A stretch of 31,025 nt of DNA from an uncultured Gammaproteobacteria bacterium (GCA_964537265.1 CAZHZE010000009.1:1-31025), one strand, 5' to 3'; counted from the first letter of the stretch, positions 3,487-15,039 are shown. The notes: generated by a model from the sequence alone, not told the origin. A program made the numbers and translations.

Positions 3487-3495
3487 TTATTCACA
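3487..3495 (+). promoter_or_regulatory. DnaA-box-like 9-mer TTATTCACA, 8/9 match to TTATCCACA, in the rpmH-dnaA divergent intergenic region
   Basis: The sequence ttattcaca lies about 145 nt upstream of the dnaA start. It is the only near-consensus box I see in this 353-nt spacer. Confidence 0.3.
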
Positions 3496-3637: not shown

Positions 3638-4984
3638 ATGAATAATGAGCAACTTTGGCAAGCCGTTTTAGGTGAAATTGAATTAAGTTTATCTAAAGCC
3701 AACTTCACCACCTGGTTTAAAAACACTTTTATTTCTTCTATTGAAAACAGCCGGGCAATTATTTGTGTGCCAAACACTTTTACTAAGGCTTGGTTAGAAA
3801 AAAAATACCACAAAGAAATATGTGGCGCCTTTAAAAATGTTGGCTCAGCAGAAATTAAAGAAATTATTTATAAAGTTGAGGCTAAAAAAGAATTGGTTTC
3901 GGATAATTTAATAAAAAAATTTAAAAACGAAAGTGTTGTTGAAATAAAACCGAAAACTCTTAACCGCTTTGGTCTTAATAATCGATATATTTTTGAAAAT
4001 TTTATTGTGGGAAAAAATAATGAATTAGCCCATGCAGCCTGCCAGGCGGTTTCAGCCAACCCAGGCCATGCTTATAATCCTCTTTTTATTTATGGCGGGG
4101 TTGGGTTGGGAAAAACTCATCTCTTGCAAGCTATCGGCCACGAATTATCTAAAAAAACCGATAAAATTTTATATGTTTCTTCTGAAAAATTTACAAACGA
4201 CTATGTCCACGCAGTTAGAAATGGCCAAGCCAAAGAATTTAAAGATCATTATCGAAATGTTGATTTATTGCTAATTGATGATATTCATTTCATGGGCGGC
4301 AAAGATGGAACTCAAGAAGAATTCTTCCATACTTTTAACGAATTACACCAAACTAATAAACAAATAGTAATTTCTTCTGACCGACCGCCTAAAGCTATAC
4401 CGGCCTTAGAAAAAAGATTGCTTTCCCGCTTTGAATGGGGGATGATAGCCGATATAGGCTCTCCGGATTTAGAAACTAGAATAGCCATTTTAGAAACTAA
4501 ATGTCGAGAAAAAAATTATAAATTAGAAAGAGAAATTTTGGCTTACATTGCTAATAATATCACTAATAATATCCGCGAATTAGAAGGAGCTTTAAATCGC
4601 TTAATCGCTTATTACGAATTTAATAATTCTTTGCCTTCCTTAGACTCTACTAAAAGTATTTTAGCTGGCATAATCTCTAATTTTCAATCTAAATCAACTA
4701 CGCCTAAAACCATTATTGAAGCGGCGGCCAGGTTTTTTGATATTAATGTTAAAGATTTGATCGGCCAAAGCAGAAAAAAAGAATTAGTCGTGCCCAGACA
4801 AATTGTTATGTATTTAATGCGCAAAGAAATTAACGCCTCTTATCCATCTATCGGCCAAGAGTTGGGCGGACGAGACCATACTACAGCTATGCACGCATTT
4901 AATAAAATTGAACGCGAATCACAAGAGGATGAAAAAATAAAACAACACATAGATTCTATAAAACAAGTTCTTTATAGTAGTTAA
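3638..4984 (+). CDS. dnaA: chromosomal replication initiator protein DnaA
   Basis: The 448-aa product has the Walker A motif GGVGLGKTHL, Walker B LLIDDIHF and a sensor region. The C-terminal DNA-binding domain includes VPRQIVMYLMRK...HTTAMHA. Divergent from rpmH and followed by dnaN. Confidence 0.95.
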   Translation: MNNEQLWQAVLGEIELSLSKANFTTWFKNTFISSIENSRAIICVPNTFTKAWLEKKYHKEICGAFKNVGSAEIKEIIYKVEAKKELVSDNLIKKFKNESVVEIKPKTLNRFGLNNRYIFENFIVGKNNELAHAACQAVSANPGHAYNPLFIYGGVGLGKTHLLQAIGHELSKKTDKILYVSSEKFTNDYVHAVRNGQAKEFKDHYRNVDLLLIDDIHFMGGKDGTQEEFFHTFNELHQTNKQIVISSDRPPKAIPALEKRLLSRFEWGMIADIGSPDLETRIAILETKCREKNYKLEREILAYIANNITNNIRELEGALNRLIAYYEFNNSLPSLDSTKSILAGIISNFQSKSTTPKTIIEAAARFFDINVKDLIGQSRKKELVVPRQIVMYLMRKEINASYPSIGQELGGRDHTTAMHAFNKIERESQEDEKIKQHIDSIKQVLYSS

Positions 4985-5243
4985 TAAACCGGTGGAAAAA
5001 AACAAATTAACTGTTAATAATTTATTAAATTTTTTAAAACCAAAAAAATTAACCCCAACCAATTAACACATTAAACAAAAAATCCCACACCCAACACACA
5101 ACCACCAACCACAAAACAACCAACAAACACAACACATAACAAAAAATATTAACTTATTAACTCACCTTATTATTACTATTAGTTTTTAAAATATATAAAT
5201 AATTAAAAATAATTAACAACTCTTAATTTGTTAATAAAAAAAT

Positions 5244-6395
5244 ATGGCCAACCAAAATTCTAATGGATTAAAAATATTTAGTTTGCAAGAAAATTTAAAA
5301 CAAGGCTTAGCGCTGGTTAGTCATATTTCTGGTAAAAATATTAATTTACCAATATTAAATAATGTTTTAATAAAAGCAGAAGATGGAAAAATTAAATTAA
5401 TAAGCACAAATTTAGAGGTTGGGATAATAAGTTCTGTTCGCGGAAAAATTGAAAAAGAAGGTGTTTTTACGGTTAATGCTAAAATTATATCTGATTGTAT
5501 AAGCCTTTTACCAAATAAAAAAATAGGGTTAGAACAAAGCGGGACAGATTTTTTAGTAGATTGTGAAAACTATCAAGTTAAAGTAAGGGGTCAATCAGCC
5601 GAGGAATTTCCTTTAATCCCAGAGGTGGATAAAAAAAATTATTTTAGCGCGCAAGCCGAGGAAATAAAACAGGCTATCTCTCAGGTTATTTTTGCCACCG
5701 CCACTAGTGAAACAAGGTTAGAGTTGTCTGGTGTTTTATTTGTTTTTACTGCAAATTATTTAACTATGGTAGCAACAGATAGTTATCGTTTGGCAGAAAA
5801 AAAAGTAAAAATAAAATCTAATAGCGAAGAAGATAAAAAAATTATTGTACCGGCAAAAACTTTACAGGAGTTATTGAGAATTTTATCTTTAGGTTTAGGA
5901 GATGAAGTAGAAGATAAAAATCAAGAAATAAAATTTTATATTTCAGAAAATCAAATTTTATTTACTTATGGTTCGACCGAATTGGTTTCGCGATTAATTG
6001 AAGGTCAATACCCCGATTATCAACAAATTATTCCTACTAATAGTAAAACAAAAGTTTCTATTAATCAGCAGGAGTTGACTAGAGCTGTAAAAATGGCTTC
6101 TTTATTTTCTAAAACCGGAGTGAATGATGTTAATTTAGATTTTCCTGCCGGTAAAAACCAAGTGGTGATTTCTTCTGTTTCCGGACAAACCGGCGAAAAT
6201 ATAACTAATTTAGAAGCTAAAGTTTCCGGCGATGACAATGGTATGGTTATTAATTATCGTTATCTTTTAGAAGGTTTAAATAATATGGAAAAAGAAATGA
6301 TAAAAATTGATATAATAGATAGTAACACTCCTTGCTTAATTAGACCCGAACAAGATGAAAGTTATTTATATATTATCATGCCTATAAAACAATAA
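5244..6395 (+). CDS. dnaN: DNA polymerase III beta sliding clamp
   Basis: The 383-aa product lies immediately downstream of dnaA and has the three-domain clamp architecture (N-terminal LKQGLALVSHISGKNINLPILNNVLIKA; C-terminal NYRYLLEGL). Confidence 0.9.
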   Translation: MANQNSNGLKIFSLQENLKQGLALVSHISGKNINLPILNNVLIKAEDGKIKLISTNLEVGIISSVRGKIEKEGVFTVNAKIISDCISLLPNKKIGLEQSGTDFLVDCENYQVKVRGQSAEEFPLIPEVDKKNYFSAQAEEIKQAISQVIFATATSETRLELSGVLFVFTANYLTMVATDSYRLAEKKVKIKSNSEEDKKIIVPAKTLQELLRILSLGLGDEVEDKNQEIKFYISENQILFTYGSTELVSRLIEGQYPDYQQIIPTNSKTKVSINQQELTRAVKMASLFSKTGVNDVNLDFPAGKNQVVISSVSGQTGENITNLEAKVSGDDNGMVINYRYLLEGLNNMEKEMIKIDIIDSNTPCLIRPEQDESYLYIIMPIKQ

Positions 6396-6474: not shown

Positions 6475-9432
6475 TTATTGAGAAGTTGCTGGAGTGGTGG
6501 TTGCGTTTATTGTAGATAAGTTATTAACATTAATAGAAATTTCTTTACTAGTATCTATCTGCCCATGCCAACCATGAGCTTCGGCGTAAATTTTATAAGA
6601 ACCGGCATTTAAAATTTTTGTTATTTGCGCCTCAGCTATTTTATCTATTATTTGGCTTTGGGCTATCTGTTGCGTGTTGCCACTTGAATCTTTTAAATAG
6701 AAGATAACCGCGGCTGTTTGTTCTGGGTTGGTCACTTCAGCTTTTATTGTTAAAGGAAAATCATATTTTAAAATATTTGTCTCGTTGGTTGGTTGAATTA
6801 TTGTCGCGCTTATTTTGCTGGTTTTCGGTCGGCTGTTTCTTATTAAATTAAATTCTATTTTTTGTTCAGAACAATTATCAACATCATCACAAGCTCGCGC
6901 AGTTAATGTGTGGTAACCATTAATTAAAGAGCTAACCGATTTATTAAGATTAAAGGGGGCGGTGGTTACGGTACTAAATAAATAACCATCAATATAATAT
7001 TCAACCCTATTAACTCCGCGCGTAGCCGTAGTGCTAACTTTTACATCTAGTGTTTGTCCGGGCAAAGTTTGTTTATTATTTGGATAGTCTATAGAAATTA
7101 CCGGGTTTAATTCTGGGCGATGAACATTATCATATTCAGTCGGCGGAGCAGCATTGATAATGCCTTGTTTTTTCGCCCATTCTTGGACGGCATTTTCCCA
7201 TAAATCAAATTGGGGGTCGCTTTTGGGGTTAGAAGGAATTTCACCACGCGGATCATCTTTGTTGACATAATATAAAATACAATGAGTTTGTTTAAATTGT
7301 TTTTCTATAATGGCGCTGGCCGGAGTAAATTCATTGGCTAAGAGTCCGGAAAATTTATCAATTTTAACCGTAGTCTCAGGATCGGTTACGCCGTCTAATA
7401 TAGGCTTACCGGTTGGAGCGTTTTCCGGGGCGTTAAAATATTCAATTGGAGTATTACCTAAAACTTTCGCCATATAATCATGCCAAATTGGTGCAGCTAC
7501 CACCGAACCATCTGCGCCGCGTTTCATTTCTTTATTATTGTTGTTGCCAACCCAAACCCCAGTAACTATGGATGGAGTATAGCCAATCGTCCAAGCGTCT
7601 CGATAATCATTGGTTGTTCCGGTTTTAGCCGCAACCGGGCGCGATCCTAAAGTTAACATATTGTTTGCGCCAAAAACATAAGCTCTGGCATTGTTATCTG
7701 ATAAAATACTATTGGTTAAGCGGGCAATTTTTGGTTCTAAAATTTTTTCATCTTGATTTTTAAATTCTTCTAAAATATTTCCGTCTTTATCTTCAATTTT
7801 TAAAATAACAGAAATTGGATGTTTAATACCTTCACGGGCAAAGGCGCTAAAAGCATTAGTATGCTCTAAGAGCTTTACTTCGCCGCCGCCTAAAACTAAA
7901 GACAAACCAAACCTGTCCCTATCGTTTAGCGTTGTATAGCCTAAACTTTGTGCCAGATTTAAAACATTGTTAATGCCGGTTAAATAAATAGCTTTAACAG
8001 CCGGTATATTTAAAGAACCGGCTAAAGCTTGCCTAATGGTTACTGGGCCATGTTCTTTTAAATCGTAATTATGAGGCTCATAAGGGTTAGCCGGATCAGT
8101 AGAAAATTTTGTTACCACATCGTAAAGCACGGTGTCTGGCGTATAGCCTTTTACAAAAGAAGCTGTATAAACAATTGGTTTAAAAGATGAGCCTGGTTGG
8201 CGTGGTTGCAAAGCTACGTTTACTTGTCCGTCAATATCATCATTAAAATAATCACGTGAGCCAACCATAGCCAATATTTGCCCTGTTTTTGGGTCAATTG
8301 AAACTAGGGCTGCGTTAGTGGCTTGATAATTTTTTTCATTATTAGTAGCTTTTTCATTAATTACTTCCTCAGCAATTTTTTGCTTATATAAATCTAAAGT
8401 AGTATAAATTTTTAACCCGCCTTGCTCGATCATTTTTTCTCCATATTTATCGGCTAACAATTCTTTTACATACATAATAAAATGAGGCGCTATCATATTG
8501 TCAGATCTTTGTTTAAAAACTAAAGTTGTCTTTTTAGCTTCAGCGGCTTGATCTTTTGTTATATAGCCATATTTAGCCATTAAATCTAAAATATATTGTT
8601 GTCTGGCGATTAACAAATCTTTATGCGAACCAAAAGGAGAATAGCGCGTTGGCGCTTGCGGTATGGCGGCTAAAATCGCCGCTTCAGCCAAATTTATATC
8701 ACGTACGTTTTTGCCAAAATAAAGCTGGCTAGCAGCCTCAACGCCATAAGCGGTCGAGCCGTAAGGTATTTCATTAAAATACATTTGCAAAATTTCATCT
8801 TTGGAAAATTTCTTTTCTATGCGATAAGCTAAAATAATTTCTTTAGCTTTTCTAATAAAAGATTTTTCATTGGTTAAAATGGCGTTTTTAACAAATTGTT
8901 GAGTTAAGGTTGAGCCGCCGGCTTTTTTACCAAATAAAATATCAGTAACAATGGTTCTAAAAATTGCCCAAAGGCTAAAACCTTTGTGTTTATAAAAATC
9001 TTTATCTTCAATAGAAATAGTGGCATTTTTTACATTTTCCGGTATATCTTTTAAATTAACTAAGGTCCTTTTTTGTTCGCCATAGATATCATAAAGAATA
9101 GTTTGTCCGCTACGATCATAAATTTTTGTGCTTTGGGCGATTTGTCGTTCAGTCAAACGATTAGGGTCTGGCAAACCATGGGATAACCATAAAAATCCAG
9201 CATAACCAAAAACAAACAAAGCTAAAAGGCCTATAAATATATTTTTAGGCGTTAAAAATTTGGATATATATTTATTAATATATTTATTTTTGCCGTTTGT
9301 ATATTGTTTAACGATTGTCCGGCTGCTAAAATTTGAAGAAGTTCTTTTAAATTTATTAAAAAAACTATTTTTTTTAGACCGGCGCCAACCTTGAGGAGAT
9401 TTTATATGATTTGAAGAATATGAAGCAGACAT
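6475..9432 (-). CDS. class A penicillin-binding protein (PBP1A-like transglycosylase/transpeptidase) with a long C-terminal extension
   Basis: The 985-aa product has an N-terminal TM, GT51 motifs (EDKDFYKHKGF, GGSTLTQQ), and transpeptidase motifs (SSFKP, SLN, KTGTT). About 250 C-terminal residues look beta-rich. Confidence 0.9.
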   Translation of the reverse strand: MSASYSSNHIKSPQGWRRSKKNSFFNKFKRTSSNFSSRTIVKQYTNGKNKYINKYISKFLTPKNIFIGLLALFVFGYAGFLWLSHGLPDPNRLTERQIAQSTKIYDRSGQTILYDIYGEQKRTLVNLKDIPENVKNATISIEDKDFYKHKGFSLWAIFRTIVTDILFGKKAGGSTLTQQFVKNAILTNEKSFIRKAKEIILAYRIEKKFSKDEILQMYFNEIPYGSTAYGVEAASQLYFGKNVRDINLAEAAILAAIPQAPTRYSPFGSHKDLLIARQQYILDLMAKYGYITKDQAAEAKKTTLVFKQRSDNMIAPHFIMYVKELLADKYGEKMIEQGGLKIYTTLDLYKQKIAEEVINEKATNNEKNYQATNAALVSIDPKTGQILAMVGSRDYFNDDIDGQVNVALQPRQPGSSFKPIVYTASFVKGYTPDTVLYDVVTKFSTDPANPYEPHNYDLKEHGPVTIRQALAGSLNIPAVKAIYLTGINNVLNLAQSLGYTTLNDRDRFGLSLVLGGGEVKLLEHTNAFSAFAREGIKHPISVILKIEDKDGNILEEFKNQDEKILEPKIARLTNSILSDNNARAYVFGANNMLTLGSRPVAAKTGTTNDYRDAWTIGYTPSIVTGVWVGNNNNKEMKRGADGSVVAAPIWHDYMAKVLGNTPIEYFNAPENAPTGKPILDGVTDPETTVKIDKFSGLLANEFTPASAIIEKQFKQTHCILYYVNKDDPRGEIPSNPKSDPQFDLWENAVQEWAKKQGIINAAPPTEYDNVHRPELNPVISIDYPNNKQTLPGQTLDVKVSTTATRGVNRVEYYIDGYLFSTVTTAPFNLNKSVSSLINGYHTLTARACDDVDNCSEQKIEFNLIRNSRPKTSKISATIIQPTNETNILKYDFPLTIKAEVTNPEQTAAVIFYLKDSSGNTQQIAQSQIIDKIAEAQITKILNAGSYKIYAEAHGWHGQIDTSKEISINVNNLSTINATTTPATSQ

Positions 9433-13811: not shown

Positions 13812-13832
13812 ACATTAAATATTTATTTATAT

Positions 13833-13876
13833 TTACCCCACATTTAAAATATTAAGTGTGGGGTAAACTTGTTTTA
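13833..13876 (+). terminator. rho-independent terminator after the 3D-domain gene
   Basis: The stem ttaccccaca / tgtggggtaa (10 bp) has a 13-nt loop and is followed by acttgtttt. Confidence 0.6.
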
Positions 13877-13929
13877 AGTAATTTTATTTGTTATATTTAT
13901 TAAATAAAGTATATTAAATTTTTATTTTA

Positions 13930-14001
13930 GGCCAGGTAGCCAAGTGGTAAGGCGAGAGTCTGCAAAACTCTTATTCATGGGTTCGATTCCCATTCTGGCC
14001 T
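13930..14001 (+). tRNA. tRNA-Cys(GCA), 72 nt, U73 discriminator, no encoded CCA
   Basis: The sequence reads GGCCAGG TA GCC AAGTGGTAA GGC G AGAGT CTGCAAA ACTCT TATTC ATGGG TTCGATT CCCAT TCTGGCC T. The anticodon is GCA, and U73 is the Cys identity element. Confidence 0.85.
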
Positions 14002-14004
14002 CAT

Positions 14005-14031
14005 TTATTTTAGTCTACATTTTTGTAGACT
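14005..14031. repeat. 27-nt direct repeat copy 1 (ttattttagtctacatttttgtagact), itself containing a 9-bp palindrome tagtctaca/tgtagacta
   Basis: This is identical to 14083..14109 and sits immediately 3' of tRNA-Cys. Confidence 0.8.
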
Positions 14032-14048
14032 AAAAATTATATATAAGC

Positions 14049-14077
14049 TGTGGATAAAAAGTGCTAAGTGTGGATAA
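14049..14077 (+). promoter_or_regulatory. two perfect consensus DnaA boxes in direct orientation with 20-bp spacing
   Basis: tgtggataa, the reverse complement of TTATCCACA, occurs at 14049-14057 and 14069-14077. The pair is bracketed by the two copies of the 27-nt repeat. Confidence 0.6.
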
Positions 14078-14082
14078 ATTTT

Positions 14083-14109
14083 TTATTTTAGTCTACATTT
14101 TTGTAGACT
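14083..14109. repeat. 27-nt direct repeat copy 2
   Basis: Identical to 14005..14031. Confidence 0.8.
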
Positions 14110-14172
14110 TAAATACTATAAAAAATAAATAAATAGCTAATATTAGTAAATTTATTATTTTATATTACATTA

Positions 14173-14201
14173 TTGACTTTTTATATTTTTGGTGGTATAT
14201 T
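14173..14201 (+). promoter_or_regulatory. near-consensus sigma70-type promoter (TTGACT-17-TATATT) with no downstream ORF
   Basis: ttgact lies at 14173-14178, followed by a 17-nt spacer and tatatt at 14196-14201. The next plus-strand CDS starts at 14668, and a strong terminator lies at 14522-14550. Confidence 0.45.
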
Positions 14202-14521
14202 AATAATAGGACATTTATAATATTTATAGAAAAGTTTTCCGAAGTGTTTATTTGGGAAAATTTTTCTTTTTTGCTGACTTAAAGTGTCAGAGTTCACATG
14301 GCAATTTTTAAAACAAAAATAAAATAACGGTAGGTTTTCTTTGCTAAATAAAAATTAAAGGAGATTTACCAATAGTTAGCAAAAATTCGCATTTTTAAAG
14401 TGAACACTAAATGCTTCAACCTTAAAGATTAGGGATTTTCTAGACTTATTTTCGAATGGGTCTGAAATAAGTCTTTAGGGATGGGGCTCAGTTACGGCCT
14501 ATATAATTTATTATTTTATAT

Positions 14522-14550
14522 AAAAAGGGGCCCGTTCTGGGCCCTTTTTA
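14522..14550. terminator. strong bidirectional intrinsic terminator
   Basis: The sequence is aaaaa ggggccc gttct gggccc ttttt. A 6-bp all-GC stem stands out in this AT-rich DNA, with an A-run before it and a T-run after it. Confidence 0.75.
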
Positions 14551-14572
14551 TATACTTAAATTTTTATTACTC

Positions 14573-14636
14573 TTGCAAAAATGCTTATTATGACGTATAT
14601 TATAAGTGATGATTTATCCTAATCTACGGGATAAAT
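14573..14636 (+). promoter_or_regulatory. promoter TTGCAA-17-TATATT plus inverted repeat atttatcc-N9-ggataaat in the dksA-like 5' region
   Basis: ttgcaa lies at 14573-78 and tatatt at 14596-14601. The inverted repeat at 14612-14636 sits between the -10 and the ATG at 14668; its half-sites resemble half DnaA boxes (TTATCC). Confidence 0.4.
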
Positions 14637-14667
14637 TTTAGTTTAAAGCAGGTATAAGTTAAATAAT

Positions 14668-15039
14668 ATGGATAAAAAAATTGTAGCAAAAATTAAAAAA
14701 GATTTGTTGTCTAGCAAAAAGCAGTTAATGGAAGATTTAAAAAGTTTTACAAAAAAAGACGAACACGCCAAAGATGAACATCATACTGAATTTCCAAATT
14801 ATGGAGACAAGAGTGATGAAAATGTTCAAGAGATAGATGAATACACAACCAACTTAGCTAAAGAGAAAGTTTTAGAAAGCGCTTTGCGCGATATTGATAA
14901 TGCTTTGGATAGAATTACTAAAGGAACTTATGGTATTTGTAAATATTGTAAACAAGAAATAGGCGAGAAGAGGCTTATGGCTAGACCGGTGGCTAATACT
15001 TGCATTTCCTGCAAAACCAGACTACAAAAAATGTCTTAA
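14668..15039 (+). CDS. DksA/TraR-family C4 zinc-finger protein
   Basis: The 123-aa product has the C-terminal motif CKYCKQEIGEKRLMARPVANTCISC (Cx2Cx17Cx2C) and an acidic coiled-coil N-terminus. Confidence 0.75.
   Translation: MDKKIVAKIKKDLLSSKKQLMEDLKSFTKKDEHAKDEHHTEFPNYGDKSDENVQEIDEYTTNLAKEKVLESALRDIDNALDRITKGTYGICKYCKQEIGEKRLMARPVANTCISCKTRLQKMS

Follow-up and report, generated by a model that had tools for sequence, protein, structure and literature searches.

Between a tRNA-Cys gene and the predicted promoter of a structured RNA gene, a Patescibacteria genome carries a compact element in which two perfect DnaA boxes are bracketed by two copies of a palindrome-bearing repeat. The element is real, it is conserved across many Patescibacteria, and it is not a product of chance. 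With moderate confidence, we propose that it is an origin-proximal, non-origin DnaA-box cluster that would couple the occupancy of DnaA to the promoter of the RNA.

The stretch of DNA that we analysed (31,025 nucleotides in all, hereafter the window) belongs to a genome of the Patescibacteria (CPR). Its GC content is about 31%, it carries many T4SS_pilin genes, and the best homologues of its DksA-like protein are found in named Patescibacteria, Falkowbacteria or Parcubacteria MAGs. The gene order begins with yidC-yidD-rnpA-rpmH on the minus strand, followed by dnaA (3638-4984, plus strand), dnaN (5244-6395, plus strand), a class A PBP gene on the minus strand and the pilins, and continues with a gene for a 183-aa wall-protein-like product, tRNA-Cys, the element, a DksA/TraR zinc-finger gene (14668-15039) and lspA. 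The features that matter for the argument are the following:

5154-5240, plus strand: likely oriC unwinding module in the dnaA-dnaN spacer, with a degenerate box, a GC cluster, trios and AT-rich DNA
13930-14002, plus strand: tRNA-Cys (GCA), found by ARAGORN and Rfam, directly upstream of the element
14008-14035, no strand: distal palindrome, core AGTCTACA-N4-TGTAGACT at 14012-14031, within repeat copy 1 (14004-14031)
14049-14057, minus strand: DnaA box 1, a perfect TTATCCACA, kept in relatives
14060-14068, minus strand: possible weak middle box, AGTGCTAAG, a match at only 4 of 9 positions, 11 bp after box 1
14069-14077, minus strand: DnaA box 2 (promoter-proximal), a perfect TTATCCACA, its start 104 bp before the -35
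14084-14115, no strand: proximal palindrome, core AGTCTACA-N4-TGTAGACT at 14090-14109, within repeat copy 2 (14082-14109)
14136-14147, no strand: inverted-repeat motif copy GCTAATATTAGT, matching the conserved GGCTAAWATTAGCC, within an AT-rich tract
14173-14201, plus strand: predicted strong sigma-70-type promoter, TTGACT-17-(TG)-TATATT, 10 of 12 positions plus the TG
14202-14549, plus strand: structured RNA gene of about 340 nt, with a pseudoknot and a GC-rich terminator domain at 14527-14549; homologues in at least 36 loci

Boxes, palindromes and their conservation

The two boxes match TTATCCACA perfectly on the minus strand (TGTGGATAA on the plus strand), and their starts are 20 bp apart. 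The composite TGTGGATAA-N11-TGTGGATAA at 14049-14077 contains the sole perfect DnaA boxes of the 31-kb window. Shuffled windows held 0.16 perfect boxes on average and reached two in 1 of 100 shuffles, and the box-N11-box composite appeared in none of the 100, even when 2 mismatches were allowed. The first-pass annotation of this DNA had pointed to two perfect boxes in direct orientation, 20 bp apart and beside tRNA-Cys, all of which stands: the positions are right, the pair is unique in the window, and the tRNA gene lies directly upstream. It had also taken the spacing for two helical turns; the actual value is 1.9 turns.

The repeat reported on both sides of the pair is real, and identical over 28 nt where 27 had been counted: TTTATTTTAGTCTACATTTTTGTAGACT at 14004-14031 recurs at 14082-14109. 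When 14004-14035 is compared with 14082-14113, 31 of 32 positions are equal, and the window has no third copy of the 28-nt repeat at up to 3 mismatches. The copies do bracket the boxes, but the symmetry claimed for them is only rough, with a gap of 17 nt on the side of copy 1 and of 4 nt on the side of copy 2; the palindrome centres lie 41.5 and 36.5 bp away from the centre of the box pair. Similarly, the 9-bp palindrome described for each copy is true of copy 1, which reads TAGTCTACA-TTTT-TGTAGACTA at 14011-14032 and whose 9-bp stem grows to 12 bp if extended over 14008-14035, but not of copy 2 (14089-14110), where the perfect stem is 8 bp long and the ninth pair is T/T. The proximal core starts 12 bp past the last box in the window, and no open reading frame of at least 60 aa overlaps 13812-14667.

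The DnaA of the window should recognise TTATCCACA, because the contact motif of its domain IV is canonical (VVPRQ...GGRDHTT.MHA, with PRQ...GGRDHTT..H conserved). A third, weak box is possible between the two consensus boxes. In fact, the 11-nt spacer carries GTG at positions 4-6 in 12 of the 15 loci with a 20-bp pair, one helical turn past box 1; in several loci it follows the pattern nnAGTGGATTn, and in several relatives the middle-box position is AGTGGATTG, a 6/9 match to the DnaA box. It is this conserved GTG that suggests a third site, poor as the match (4/9) is in the window itself.

To follow the element in other genomes we used 80 loci fetched around DksA-like homologues in species-representative genomes, seeing 20-31 kb of each, so further box clusters may lie elsewhere in these genomes. 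The 20-bp pair is found again in relatives, at about 620-650 bp upstream of the dksA-like gene (L005-L009, L012, L014-L016, L023, L031, L042, L058 and L062). These loci span DksA identities from 88% to 54% and GC contents of 0.32-0.42, and the pair usually holds the only perfect boxes in 20 kb. Other lineages have a single box, or pairs at 57, 31-32, 21 or 12 bp. Among the 36 loci with the RNA gene, 33 have a perfect box at most 300 bp upstream of it, always as TGTGGATAA on the RNA sense strand, and 29 have at least two boxes (at most 1 mismatch), relatives carrying 2-4 boxes. The remaining 510,331 bp of these 36 loci contain 2 perfect boxes as background. Conservation in related genomes, a question that the first-pass annotation had itself raised, thus goes beyond chance for the boxes (a perfect box in 33/36 loci against 2 in 510 kb).

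The 20-bp pair alone is not specific, since a search of metagenomes for box-N11-box gave mostly unrelated bacteria: of its 80 loci, with GC contents of 0.27-0.75, 11 adjoin dnaA and only 1-2 are the present element. An exact-protein look-up returned near-identical contigs only and had no comparative value.

Nearly all window-type relatives have a tRNA-Cys gene on the same strand upstream of the boxes, with 44 to 434 bp from the tRNA end to the first box. No canonical terminator follows the tRNA-Cys; the first palindrome is only a weak terminator-like match in the window, with a T-rich tail in only some relatives. One relative (L022) has the block in inverted orientation, some 5 kb away from dksA and complete from tRNA-Cys through palindrome, boxes, second palindrome, motif and promoter to the RNA; it is the one clear case in which the boxes have moved with the RNA gene through a rearrangement. 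In another (L017), the tRNA has been lost, and one box, the proximal palindrome and the RNA are retained. The Magasanik-type loci (L071-L084) are likewise without an upstream tRNA, and their boxes and palindromes are still there. Taken together, the inversion in L022 and the loss of the tRNA in L017 argue that the boxes belong with the RNA promoter.

The palindromes recur in relatives as a family, AGTCYACA-N4-TGTRGACT, with 50 of 51 instances at most 300 bp from the boxes and a half-site gap of N4 without exception. Wherever a relative has the proximal palindrome, 19-21 nt (in most cases 21) separate the start of the last box from the start of the core; the offset of the distal copy from box 1 is variable, and some genomes carry 1-3 additional copies. 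It had been suggested that each copy could form a hairpin or a cruciform, an idea that the relatives weaken. The Y position of the two arms is C/C in 17 instances, T/T in 16 and mixed in 18, so the arms vary independently in 18 of 51, and double-stranded half-sites fit better. Of the mixed cases, 11 would be compatible with a wobble pair on one strand and 7 on the other, which argues that base pairing is not the conserved property. T-runs stand before the stems and A-runs after them in both reading directions, and the palindromes are thus not intrinsic terminators in either direction; no U-tract follows, nor do the stems show the compensatory changes of an RNA hairpin.

The Magasanikbacteria/Uhrbacteria-like loci (L071-L084) have a different palindrome around their boxes, TTTGTATACAC..GTGTATACAAA. 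The fixed N4, the clustering near the boxes, the independently varying arms, the missing U-tract and this second palindrome family together indicate that the palindromes probably serve a dimeric DNA-binding protein specific to the lineage and do not act as a hairpin or a cruciform. The arms of both families are 6/9 matches to the DnaA box, so that DnaA itself may also bind the palindromes weakly. As identities of the palindromes we rejected parS, dif, a CtrA box, a CRISPR-like repeat, a MITE and an att site, on misfits of sequence, spacing or single-locus conserved position. We also rejected two neighbouring gene products, of 183 and 194 residues, as binders of the palindromes; they resemble a secreted 3D/DPBB-like wall protein and a lipoprotein.

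The predicted promoter and the structured RNA

An AT-rich tract (14110-14172) follows the proximal palindrome. The GGCTAAWATTAGCC motif within it has its centre at about -68 relative to the predicted RNA start, and the window has 7 matches to this motif at up to 1 mismatch against 1.5 expected. Past the boxes, the proximal palindrome, this motif and the -35/-10 succeed one another at essentially fixed distances. The RNA-gene promoter predicted just beyond is conserved in relatives, and its distance to the boxes recurs: 113-114 bp separate the last box from the -35 in 9 of the 13 two-box loci, at genome GC contents of 0.32-0.44. Elsewhere the distance is 104 bp (the window), 102 bp (L042) or 120 bp (L058 and L062), and values of 126-147 bp and longer also occur. 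Relative to the predicted RNA start, the boxes are centred at about -145 and -165.

The RNA has a fold z-score of -7.3. In an alignment of 27 homologues, 92.9% of the cells are paired, against 34-52% in slid controls, and 40 of the 50 pairs have changed on both sides; the pseudoknot, in which the hairpin loop GUUCAC pairs with a downstream GUGAAC, covaries at 6 of 6 pairs. Rfam searches of the window and 12 relatives, at gathering and E-value thresholds, returned only tRNAs and noise and no family for the RNA. By the evidence of this alignment and these searches, the RNA gene is real, unclassified and strongly covarying.

The homologues were collected by nhmmer, regex extraction of the RNA ends being too strict; with nhmmer, the RNA-like region of the Magasanikbacteria-type loci showed no link to the window RNA. 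A duplex search of the RNA against gene starts, dnaA included, gave only meaningless long-loop duplexes. Two known identities were tried and rejected. The RNA is not a tmRNA, as ARAGORN puts the tmRNA elsewhere in L041 and L055 and no reading frame is conserved, and it is not RNase P RNA or SRP RNA, the universal motifs of which are absent by eye.

The position of oriC

The raw GC skew of the window follows the gene strand and was for this reason replaced by a per-gene skew at third codon positions (GC3) and a strand-corrected estimate. An unweighted pooled skew was ambiguous because it mixed two gene arrangements, which was resolved by splitting the loci by type. In the window, all six genes between 530 and 4984 have a negative GC3 skew, on both strands and with dnaA included, and 24 of the 31 genes from dnaN onward have a positive one. 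The same sign switch between dnaA and dnaN is found in L022, L061 and L070. L071 and L074 have dnaA on the opposite side of the element, and there the switch falls within one gene of the dnaA-dnaN spacer. At the element itself, the skew does not reverse: in 23 window-type loci the strand-corrected, length-weighted value is +0.075 (0.057-0.091) on its left and +0.081 (0.065-0.095) on its right, neither confidence interval including 0. Nor do the genes change to divergent orientations at the element.

The dnaA-dnaN spacer also holds a module with the basal unwinding layout of oriC, in which a box, a GC cluster, DnaA-trios and AT-rich DNA follow each other (PMC8287927). In the window this module reads TTATTAACT (5154-5162)-CACC-TTATTATTACTATTA, with the trios TTA TTA TTA CTA TTA at 5167-5181 and then AT-rich DNA. 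The corresponding modules are ATATCCACA-CCCC-TTATTATTACTATTA in L061, TTATTAACC-CCC-TTATTACTACTATTACTA in L022 and TTTTCCACT-CCC-TTATTGTTATTATTA in L070. A BUS calls for a box followed by at least three DnaA-trios (of the 3'-GAT-5' type) within about 16 bp and an AT-rich DUE, on the side that the orientation of the box dictates (PMC8287927). The element has consensus-type DnaA boxes in tandem, like a BUS, but there the boxes are at most 3 bp apart and the trios and the AT-rich DUE follow within about 13-16 bp, an arrangement present at 5154-5240 and not at 14049-14077. By eye, no DnaA-trios stand 5' of TGTGGATAA at the element; the 10-25 nt found there vary in length and sequence. Of the attributes of an origin, the element has the box cluster, with its two perfect boxes, but neither the skew switch nor, by eye, the trios.

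The origin itself has degenerate boxes only, and the element's boxes are the strongest sites near it. In keeping with what the first-pass annotation had noticed, the spacers flanking dnaA are without a perfect box and have a single 8/9 box (TTATTCACA at 3487). Since the skew keeps its sign across the element, while the switch and the unwinding module lie at dnaA-dnaN, the evidence of skew and layout is that oriC is the dnaA-dnaN spacer, 9 kb from the element, and that the element is not oriC. The element lies about 9 kb into one replichore, and 8-13 kb from the skew switch in the window-type, L022 and L071/L074 arrangements.

What the element may do

We envision that DnaA, with its canonical domain IV residues, would occupy the high-affinity boxes, and that a dimeric factor would bind the adjoining palindromes as double-stranded half-sites, not as hairpins. 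Together they would build an upstream nucleoprotein complex in a fixed register with RNA polymerase, and this complex could tune transcription of the RNA by the level or state of DnaA, with either sign. In addition, lying 8-13 kb from oriC, the element would be copied immediately after initiation and may serve as a small sink for DnaA. The coupling to the promoter is supported by the near-fixed distance from the boxes to the -35, as opposed to the variable distance from the tRNA to the boxes (44-434 bp). Against it, boxes near -145/-165 are far upstream for a classical activator or repressor, and the box-to--35 spacing is not universal (102-104, 120, 126-147 bp and longer). The fixed spacing may also partly reflect the packing of several independent sites, and the genes next to the element encode the 3D/DPBB-like wall protein and the lipoprotein, not DNA binders.

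CcnA of Caulobacter crescentus is encoded at the origin region. Like the present RNA, it is the product of a non-coding RNA gene near the origin whose promoter has sites for a master regulator of replication or the cell cycle, but it is a short sRNA under CtrA (PMC8959179), whereas here a pseudoknotted RNA of about 340 nt has DnaA as its candidate regulator. One-orientation boxes upstream of a promoter and near the origin are also found at oriCII/gidA of Pseudomonas aeruginosa (PMC13438810) and in the DnaA regulon of B. subtilis (PMC4447404). Unlike those DnaA-regulated promoters, the element would serve a structured non-coding RNA, from boxes at about -145/-165 that lie between palindromes.

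The first-pass annotation had offered both a DnaA-controlled promoter and a site of the datA/DARS type. Both survive, on the strength of the deep conservation, the invariant orientation, the fixed promoter distance and the adjacency to a tRNA gene as in datA, except for the head-to-head boxes I and II of DARS, which are absent. The main alternative, clearly less probable than the promoter coupling, is that the element regulates DnaA itself in the manner of datA or of a DBC. It would act by titration or by DnaA-ATP hydrolysis after its early duplication, and its place beside the RNA promoter would be of secondary importance; an IHF-like accessory factor would bind at the palindromes, and read-through from tRNA-Cys would modulate occupancy. 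Three gene arrangements place the element 8-13 kb from the skew switch, which suits such a role, as does the contrast between its strong boxes and the degenerate ones of the origin. However, proximity to oriC may simply be a conserved gene neighbourhood, and titration alone leaves the near-invariant promoter distance unexplained.

The resemblance to E. coli datA is notable. The latter lies downstream of glyV-X-Y, and read-through controls the binding of its accessory factor (PMC10950094). In both cases a box cluster with sites for an accessory DNA-binding protein (predicted to flank the boxes here) comes right after a tRNA gene or operon without a tight terminator, fairly near oriC. Yet minimal datA consists of boxes 2, 3, 7 and 4 plus one IHF site (PMC10950094, PMC11724364), with at least three boxes being essential and the cluster supporting oligomerisation of ATP-DnaA, while the element has two perfect head-to-tail boxes, two palindromes and a weak middle site in which only GTG is conserved. 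By eye, no IHF-consensus-like site is found at the element, the accessory sites being the 8-N4-8 palindromes, and some lineages (L017 and the Magasanik-type loci) have the boxes without an upstream tRNA.

Outside oriC, B. subtilis has oriC-proximal DBCs, which restrain initiation and some of which regulate neighbouring genes (Okumura et al. 2012; PMC3245932). These, too, are non-origin clusters of consensus boxes, intergenic and near oriC, some of them regulating neighbouring promoters, in an organism whose origin, too, is a dnaA-dnaN (incC) one and contains a basal unwinding module. As in a DBC, the element has at least two conserved intergenic boxes outside the origin, enriched over the background, and a recurrent distance and invariant orientation towards a promoter (here a predicted one). 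It differs in having only 2-3 boxes, fewer than the B. subtilis clusters, in its bracketing palindromes, in the fixed distance to the promoter of a non-coding RNA and in belonging to Patescibacteria. E. coli DARS1 and DARS2 are, similarly, short clusters of about three boxes, with flanking accessory sites in DARS2 (PMC11724364). The DARS core combines head-to-head boxes I and II with box III (PMC11724364), but the element's consensus boxes are all head-to-tail, in a single orientation at every locus examined, and only the 6/9 palindrome arms are oppositely oriented.

Going further than the promoter coupling, a reading that we hold rather doubtful makes the element part of a lineage-wide cell-cycle module of the Patescibacteria, in which DnaA and the palindrome partner would control the RNA of about 340 nt and the RNA would feed back on replication or growth. 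In a variant, the palindrome arms TGTGGACTT and TGTATACAA, oppositely oriented 6/9 matches to the box, may be weak DnaA sites themselves, making the element a compact hybrid of DARS-like (head-to-head) and datA-like (head-to-tail) DnaA assemblies gated by tRNA-Cys read-through.

That the element is a protein roadblock or insulator, where DnaA and the palindrome factor would stop or attenuate tRNA-Cys read-through before the RNA promoter, appears improbable. The tRNA gene does lack a canonical terminator, with a first palindrome that is only weakly terminator-like, and E. coli offers precedents in which bound DnaA hinders RNA polymerase, one close to the asnC terminator and one at datA box 2 (discussed in PMC10950094). 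But the tRNA-less lineages (L017, L071-L084) keep boxes and palindromes, the fixed register is with the downstream promoter and not with the tRNA, and a roadblock would not need two palindromes.

Much less probable still is the reading that oriC is displaced from dnaA, with the element as the true origin (the first-pass annotation had suggested a part of it) or as one half of a bipartite one. It would account for the sole consensus boxes in 31 kb, for the adjoining AT-rich tract (14110-14172) and for the lack of such boxes in the spacers flanking dnaA. It is contradicted by the unchanged skew at the element in 23 loci, by the skew switch at or beside the dnaA-dnaN spacer in six and by the conserved box/GC-cluster/trio/AT-rich module of that spacer. 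The side required by the box orientation shows no trios by eye, gene orientation is undivided at the element, and 9 kb far exceeds the known spacings of bipartite origins. A chance or neutral local duplication without function we consider next to impossible: a recent tandem duplication could give both boxes and repeats, and the repeats are identical here, but the architecture is kept in dozens of species-level genomes at DksA-like identities down to about 50%, the surrounding intergenic sequence has diverged, and shuffles yield no such pair.

In full-text searches, we found no description of DnaA-box elements, oriC architecture or the RNA of about 340 nt in Patescibacteria; one CPR paper goes no further than to mention, near an origin defined by skew, short repeats and sequences resembling DnaA boxes (PMC4736985). 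Non-origin DnaA-box clusters as such are already known, and what appears to be new here is that palindromes bracket the boxes, that the cluster is probably coupled to the promoter of a non-coding RNA and that it occurs in this part of the phylogeny.

Patescibacteria make up a large, mostly uncultured part of bacterial diversity, they have tiny genomes, and their replication control is essentially unstudied. Our analysis assigns oriC and an unwinding module to the dnaA-dnaN spacer in several lineages, and it places the strongest DnaA sites near the origin outside of it, in a conserved accessory element with partner sites of its own. It also identifies an unclassified, strongly covarying RNA gene that is wired to this element. 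If the element buffers or inactivates DnaA, control of the datA/DBC type would have arisen, or persisted, far outside the model phyla. And if DnaA controls the RNA, the initiator would be linked to a regulatory RNA in bacteria from which most known cell-cycle regulators are missing.

A structured RNA gene and its dksA-like neighbor

Between the paired DnaA boxes (14049-14077) and the dksA-like gene lie the following features:

14202-14549, + strand: structured RNA gene of about 340 nt, with a predicted strong promoter of its own and a GC-rich terminator domain
14573-14601: conserved promoter of the dksA-like gene
14610-14640: conserved hairpin in the leader of the dksA-like gene

The RNA gene at 14202-14549 matches no Rfam family, and its homologues are kept in at least 36 Patescibacteria loci. 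Covariation supports 50 base pairs, including a pseudoknot between a loop and downstream sequence (GUUCAC/GUGAAC), and an A-rich linker, AAAACAAAAAUAAAAUAA, is conserved. The dksA-like gene has its own conserved promoter, TTGCAA-17-TATATT, separate from that of the RNA, and this promoter is followed in the 5' leader by a small conserved hairpin (ATTTATCCTAATCTACGGGATAAAT).

In Magasanikbacteria/Uhrbacteria-like loci (L071-L084), the same position, upstream of the dksA-like gene by roughly 150-550 bp, is taken by a different RNA-like region of about 400 nt, which has both promoter and terminator. Nhmmer found no match between this region and the RNA of the window, and an Rfam search of three loci (L072, L077 and L078) found nothing. 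It may be a diverged homologue.

Motifs and insertions beside stable-RNA genes

An inverted-repeat motif, GCTAAWATTAGC / TTAGCC, forms a cluster at 50-115, where the window begins, with a - strand tRNA gene on either side, and recurs at 14136-14147, at about -68 of the predicted RNA promoter. Allowing at most one mismatch, the window holds seven matches against 1.5 expected; the motif might serve as a site for a regulator of stable-RNA promoters.

In four comparison loci (L005, at 9201-9300, L007, L008 and L016), an insert of about 100 bp separates tRNA-Cys from the boxes, and after it the tRNA-Cys 3' half is repeated (…CAAAACTCTTATGCATGGGTTCAATTCCCATCCTGGCCTCA). This arrangement resembles a scar left where an element inserted at the 3' end of the tRNA; alternatively, the insert is possibly an intervening sequence.

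DnaA-box pairs and the origin

Direct-orientation pairs of perfect DnaA boxes, 20 bp apart, are common across bacteria. A metagenome scan returned at least 120 matches, and the 80 loci listed (L085-L164) span a GC content of 0.27-0.75. The pair adjoins dnaA in 11 of these 80, and many of the metagenome loci have a third, overlapping box inside the spacer (e.g. TGTGGATAAGTGGATAAC).

5154-5240, dnaA-dnaN spacer: candidate oriC unwinding module

Here a degenerate box, TTATTAACT, precedes a CACC cluster and a run that resembles DnaA-trios, TTA TTA TTA CTA TTA, with AT-rich DNA after it. A near-identical run occurs in three comparison loci (L061, L022 and L070), and third-codon-position GC skew changes sign at this spacer.

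The same spacer contains a tract of about 100 nt (5040-5140) whose + strand lacks G and is nearly all C and A (ccaacacacaaccaccaaccacaaaacaacc...), with a weaker counterpart in L022. Also near the origin are seven small tandem genes with a T4SS_pilin domain (PF18895; 9652-12403 and 21959-22864), an arrangement typical of Patescibacteria.

The segment at 5154-5240 is likely the unwinding module of oriC, and the origin in this lineage seems to use only degenerate boxes, of the TTATTAAC type.
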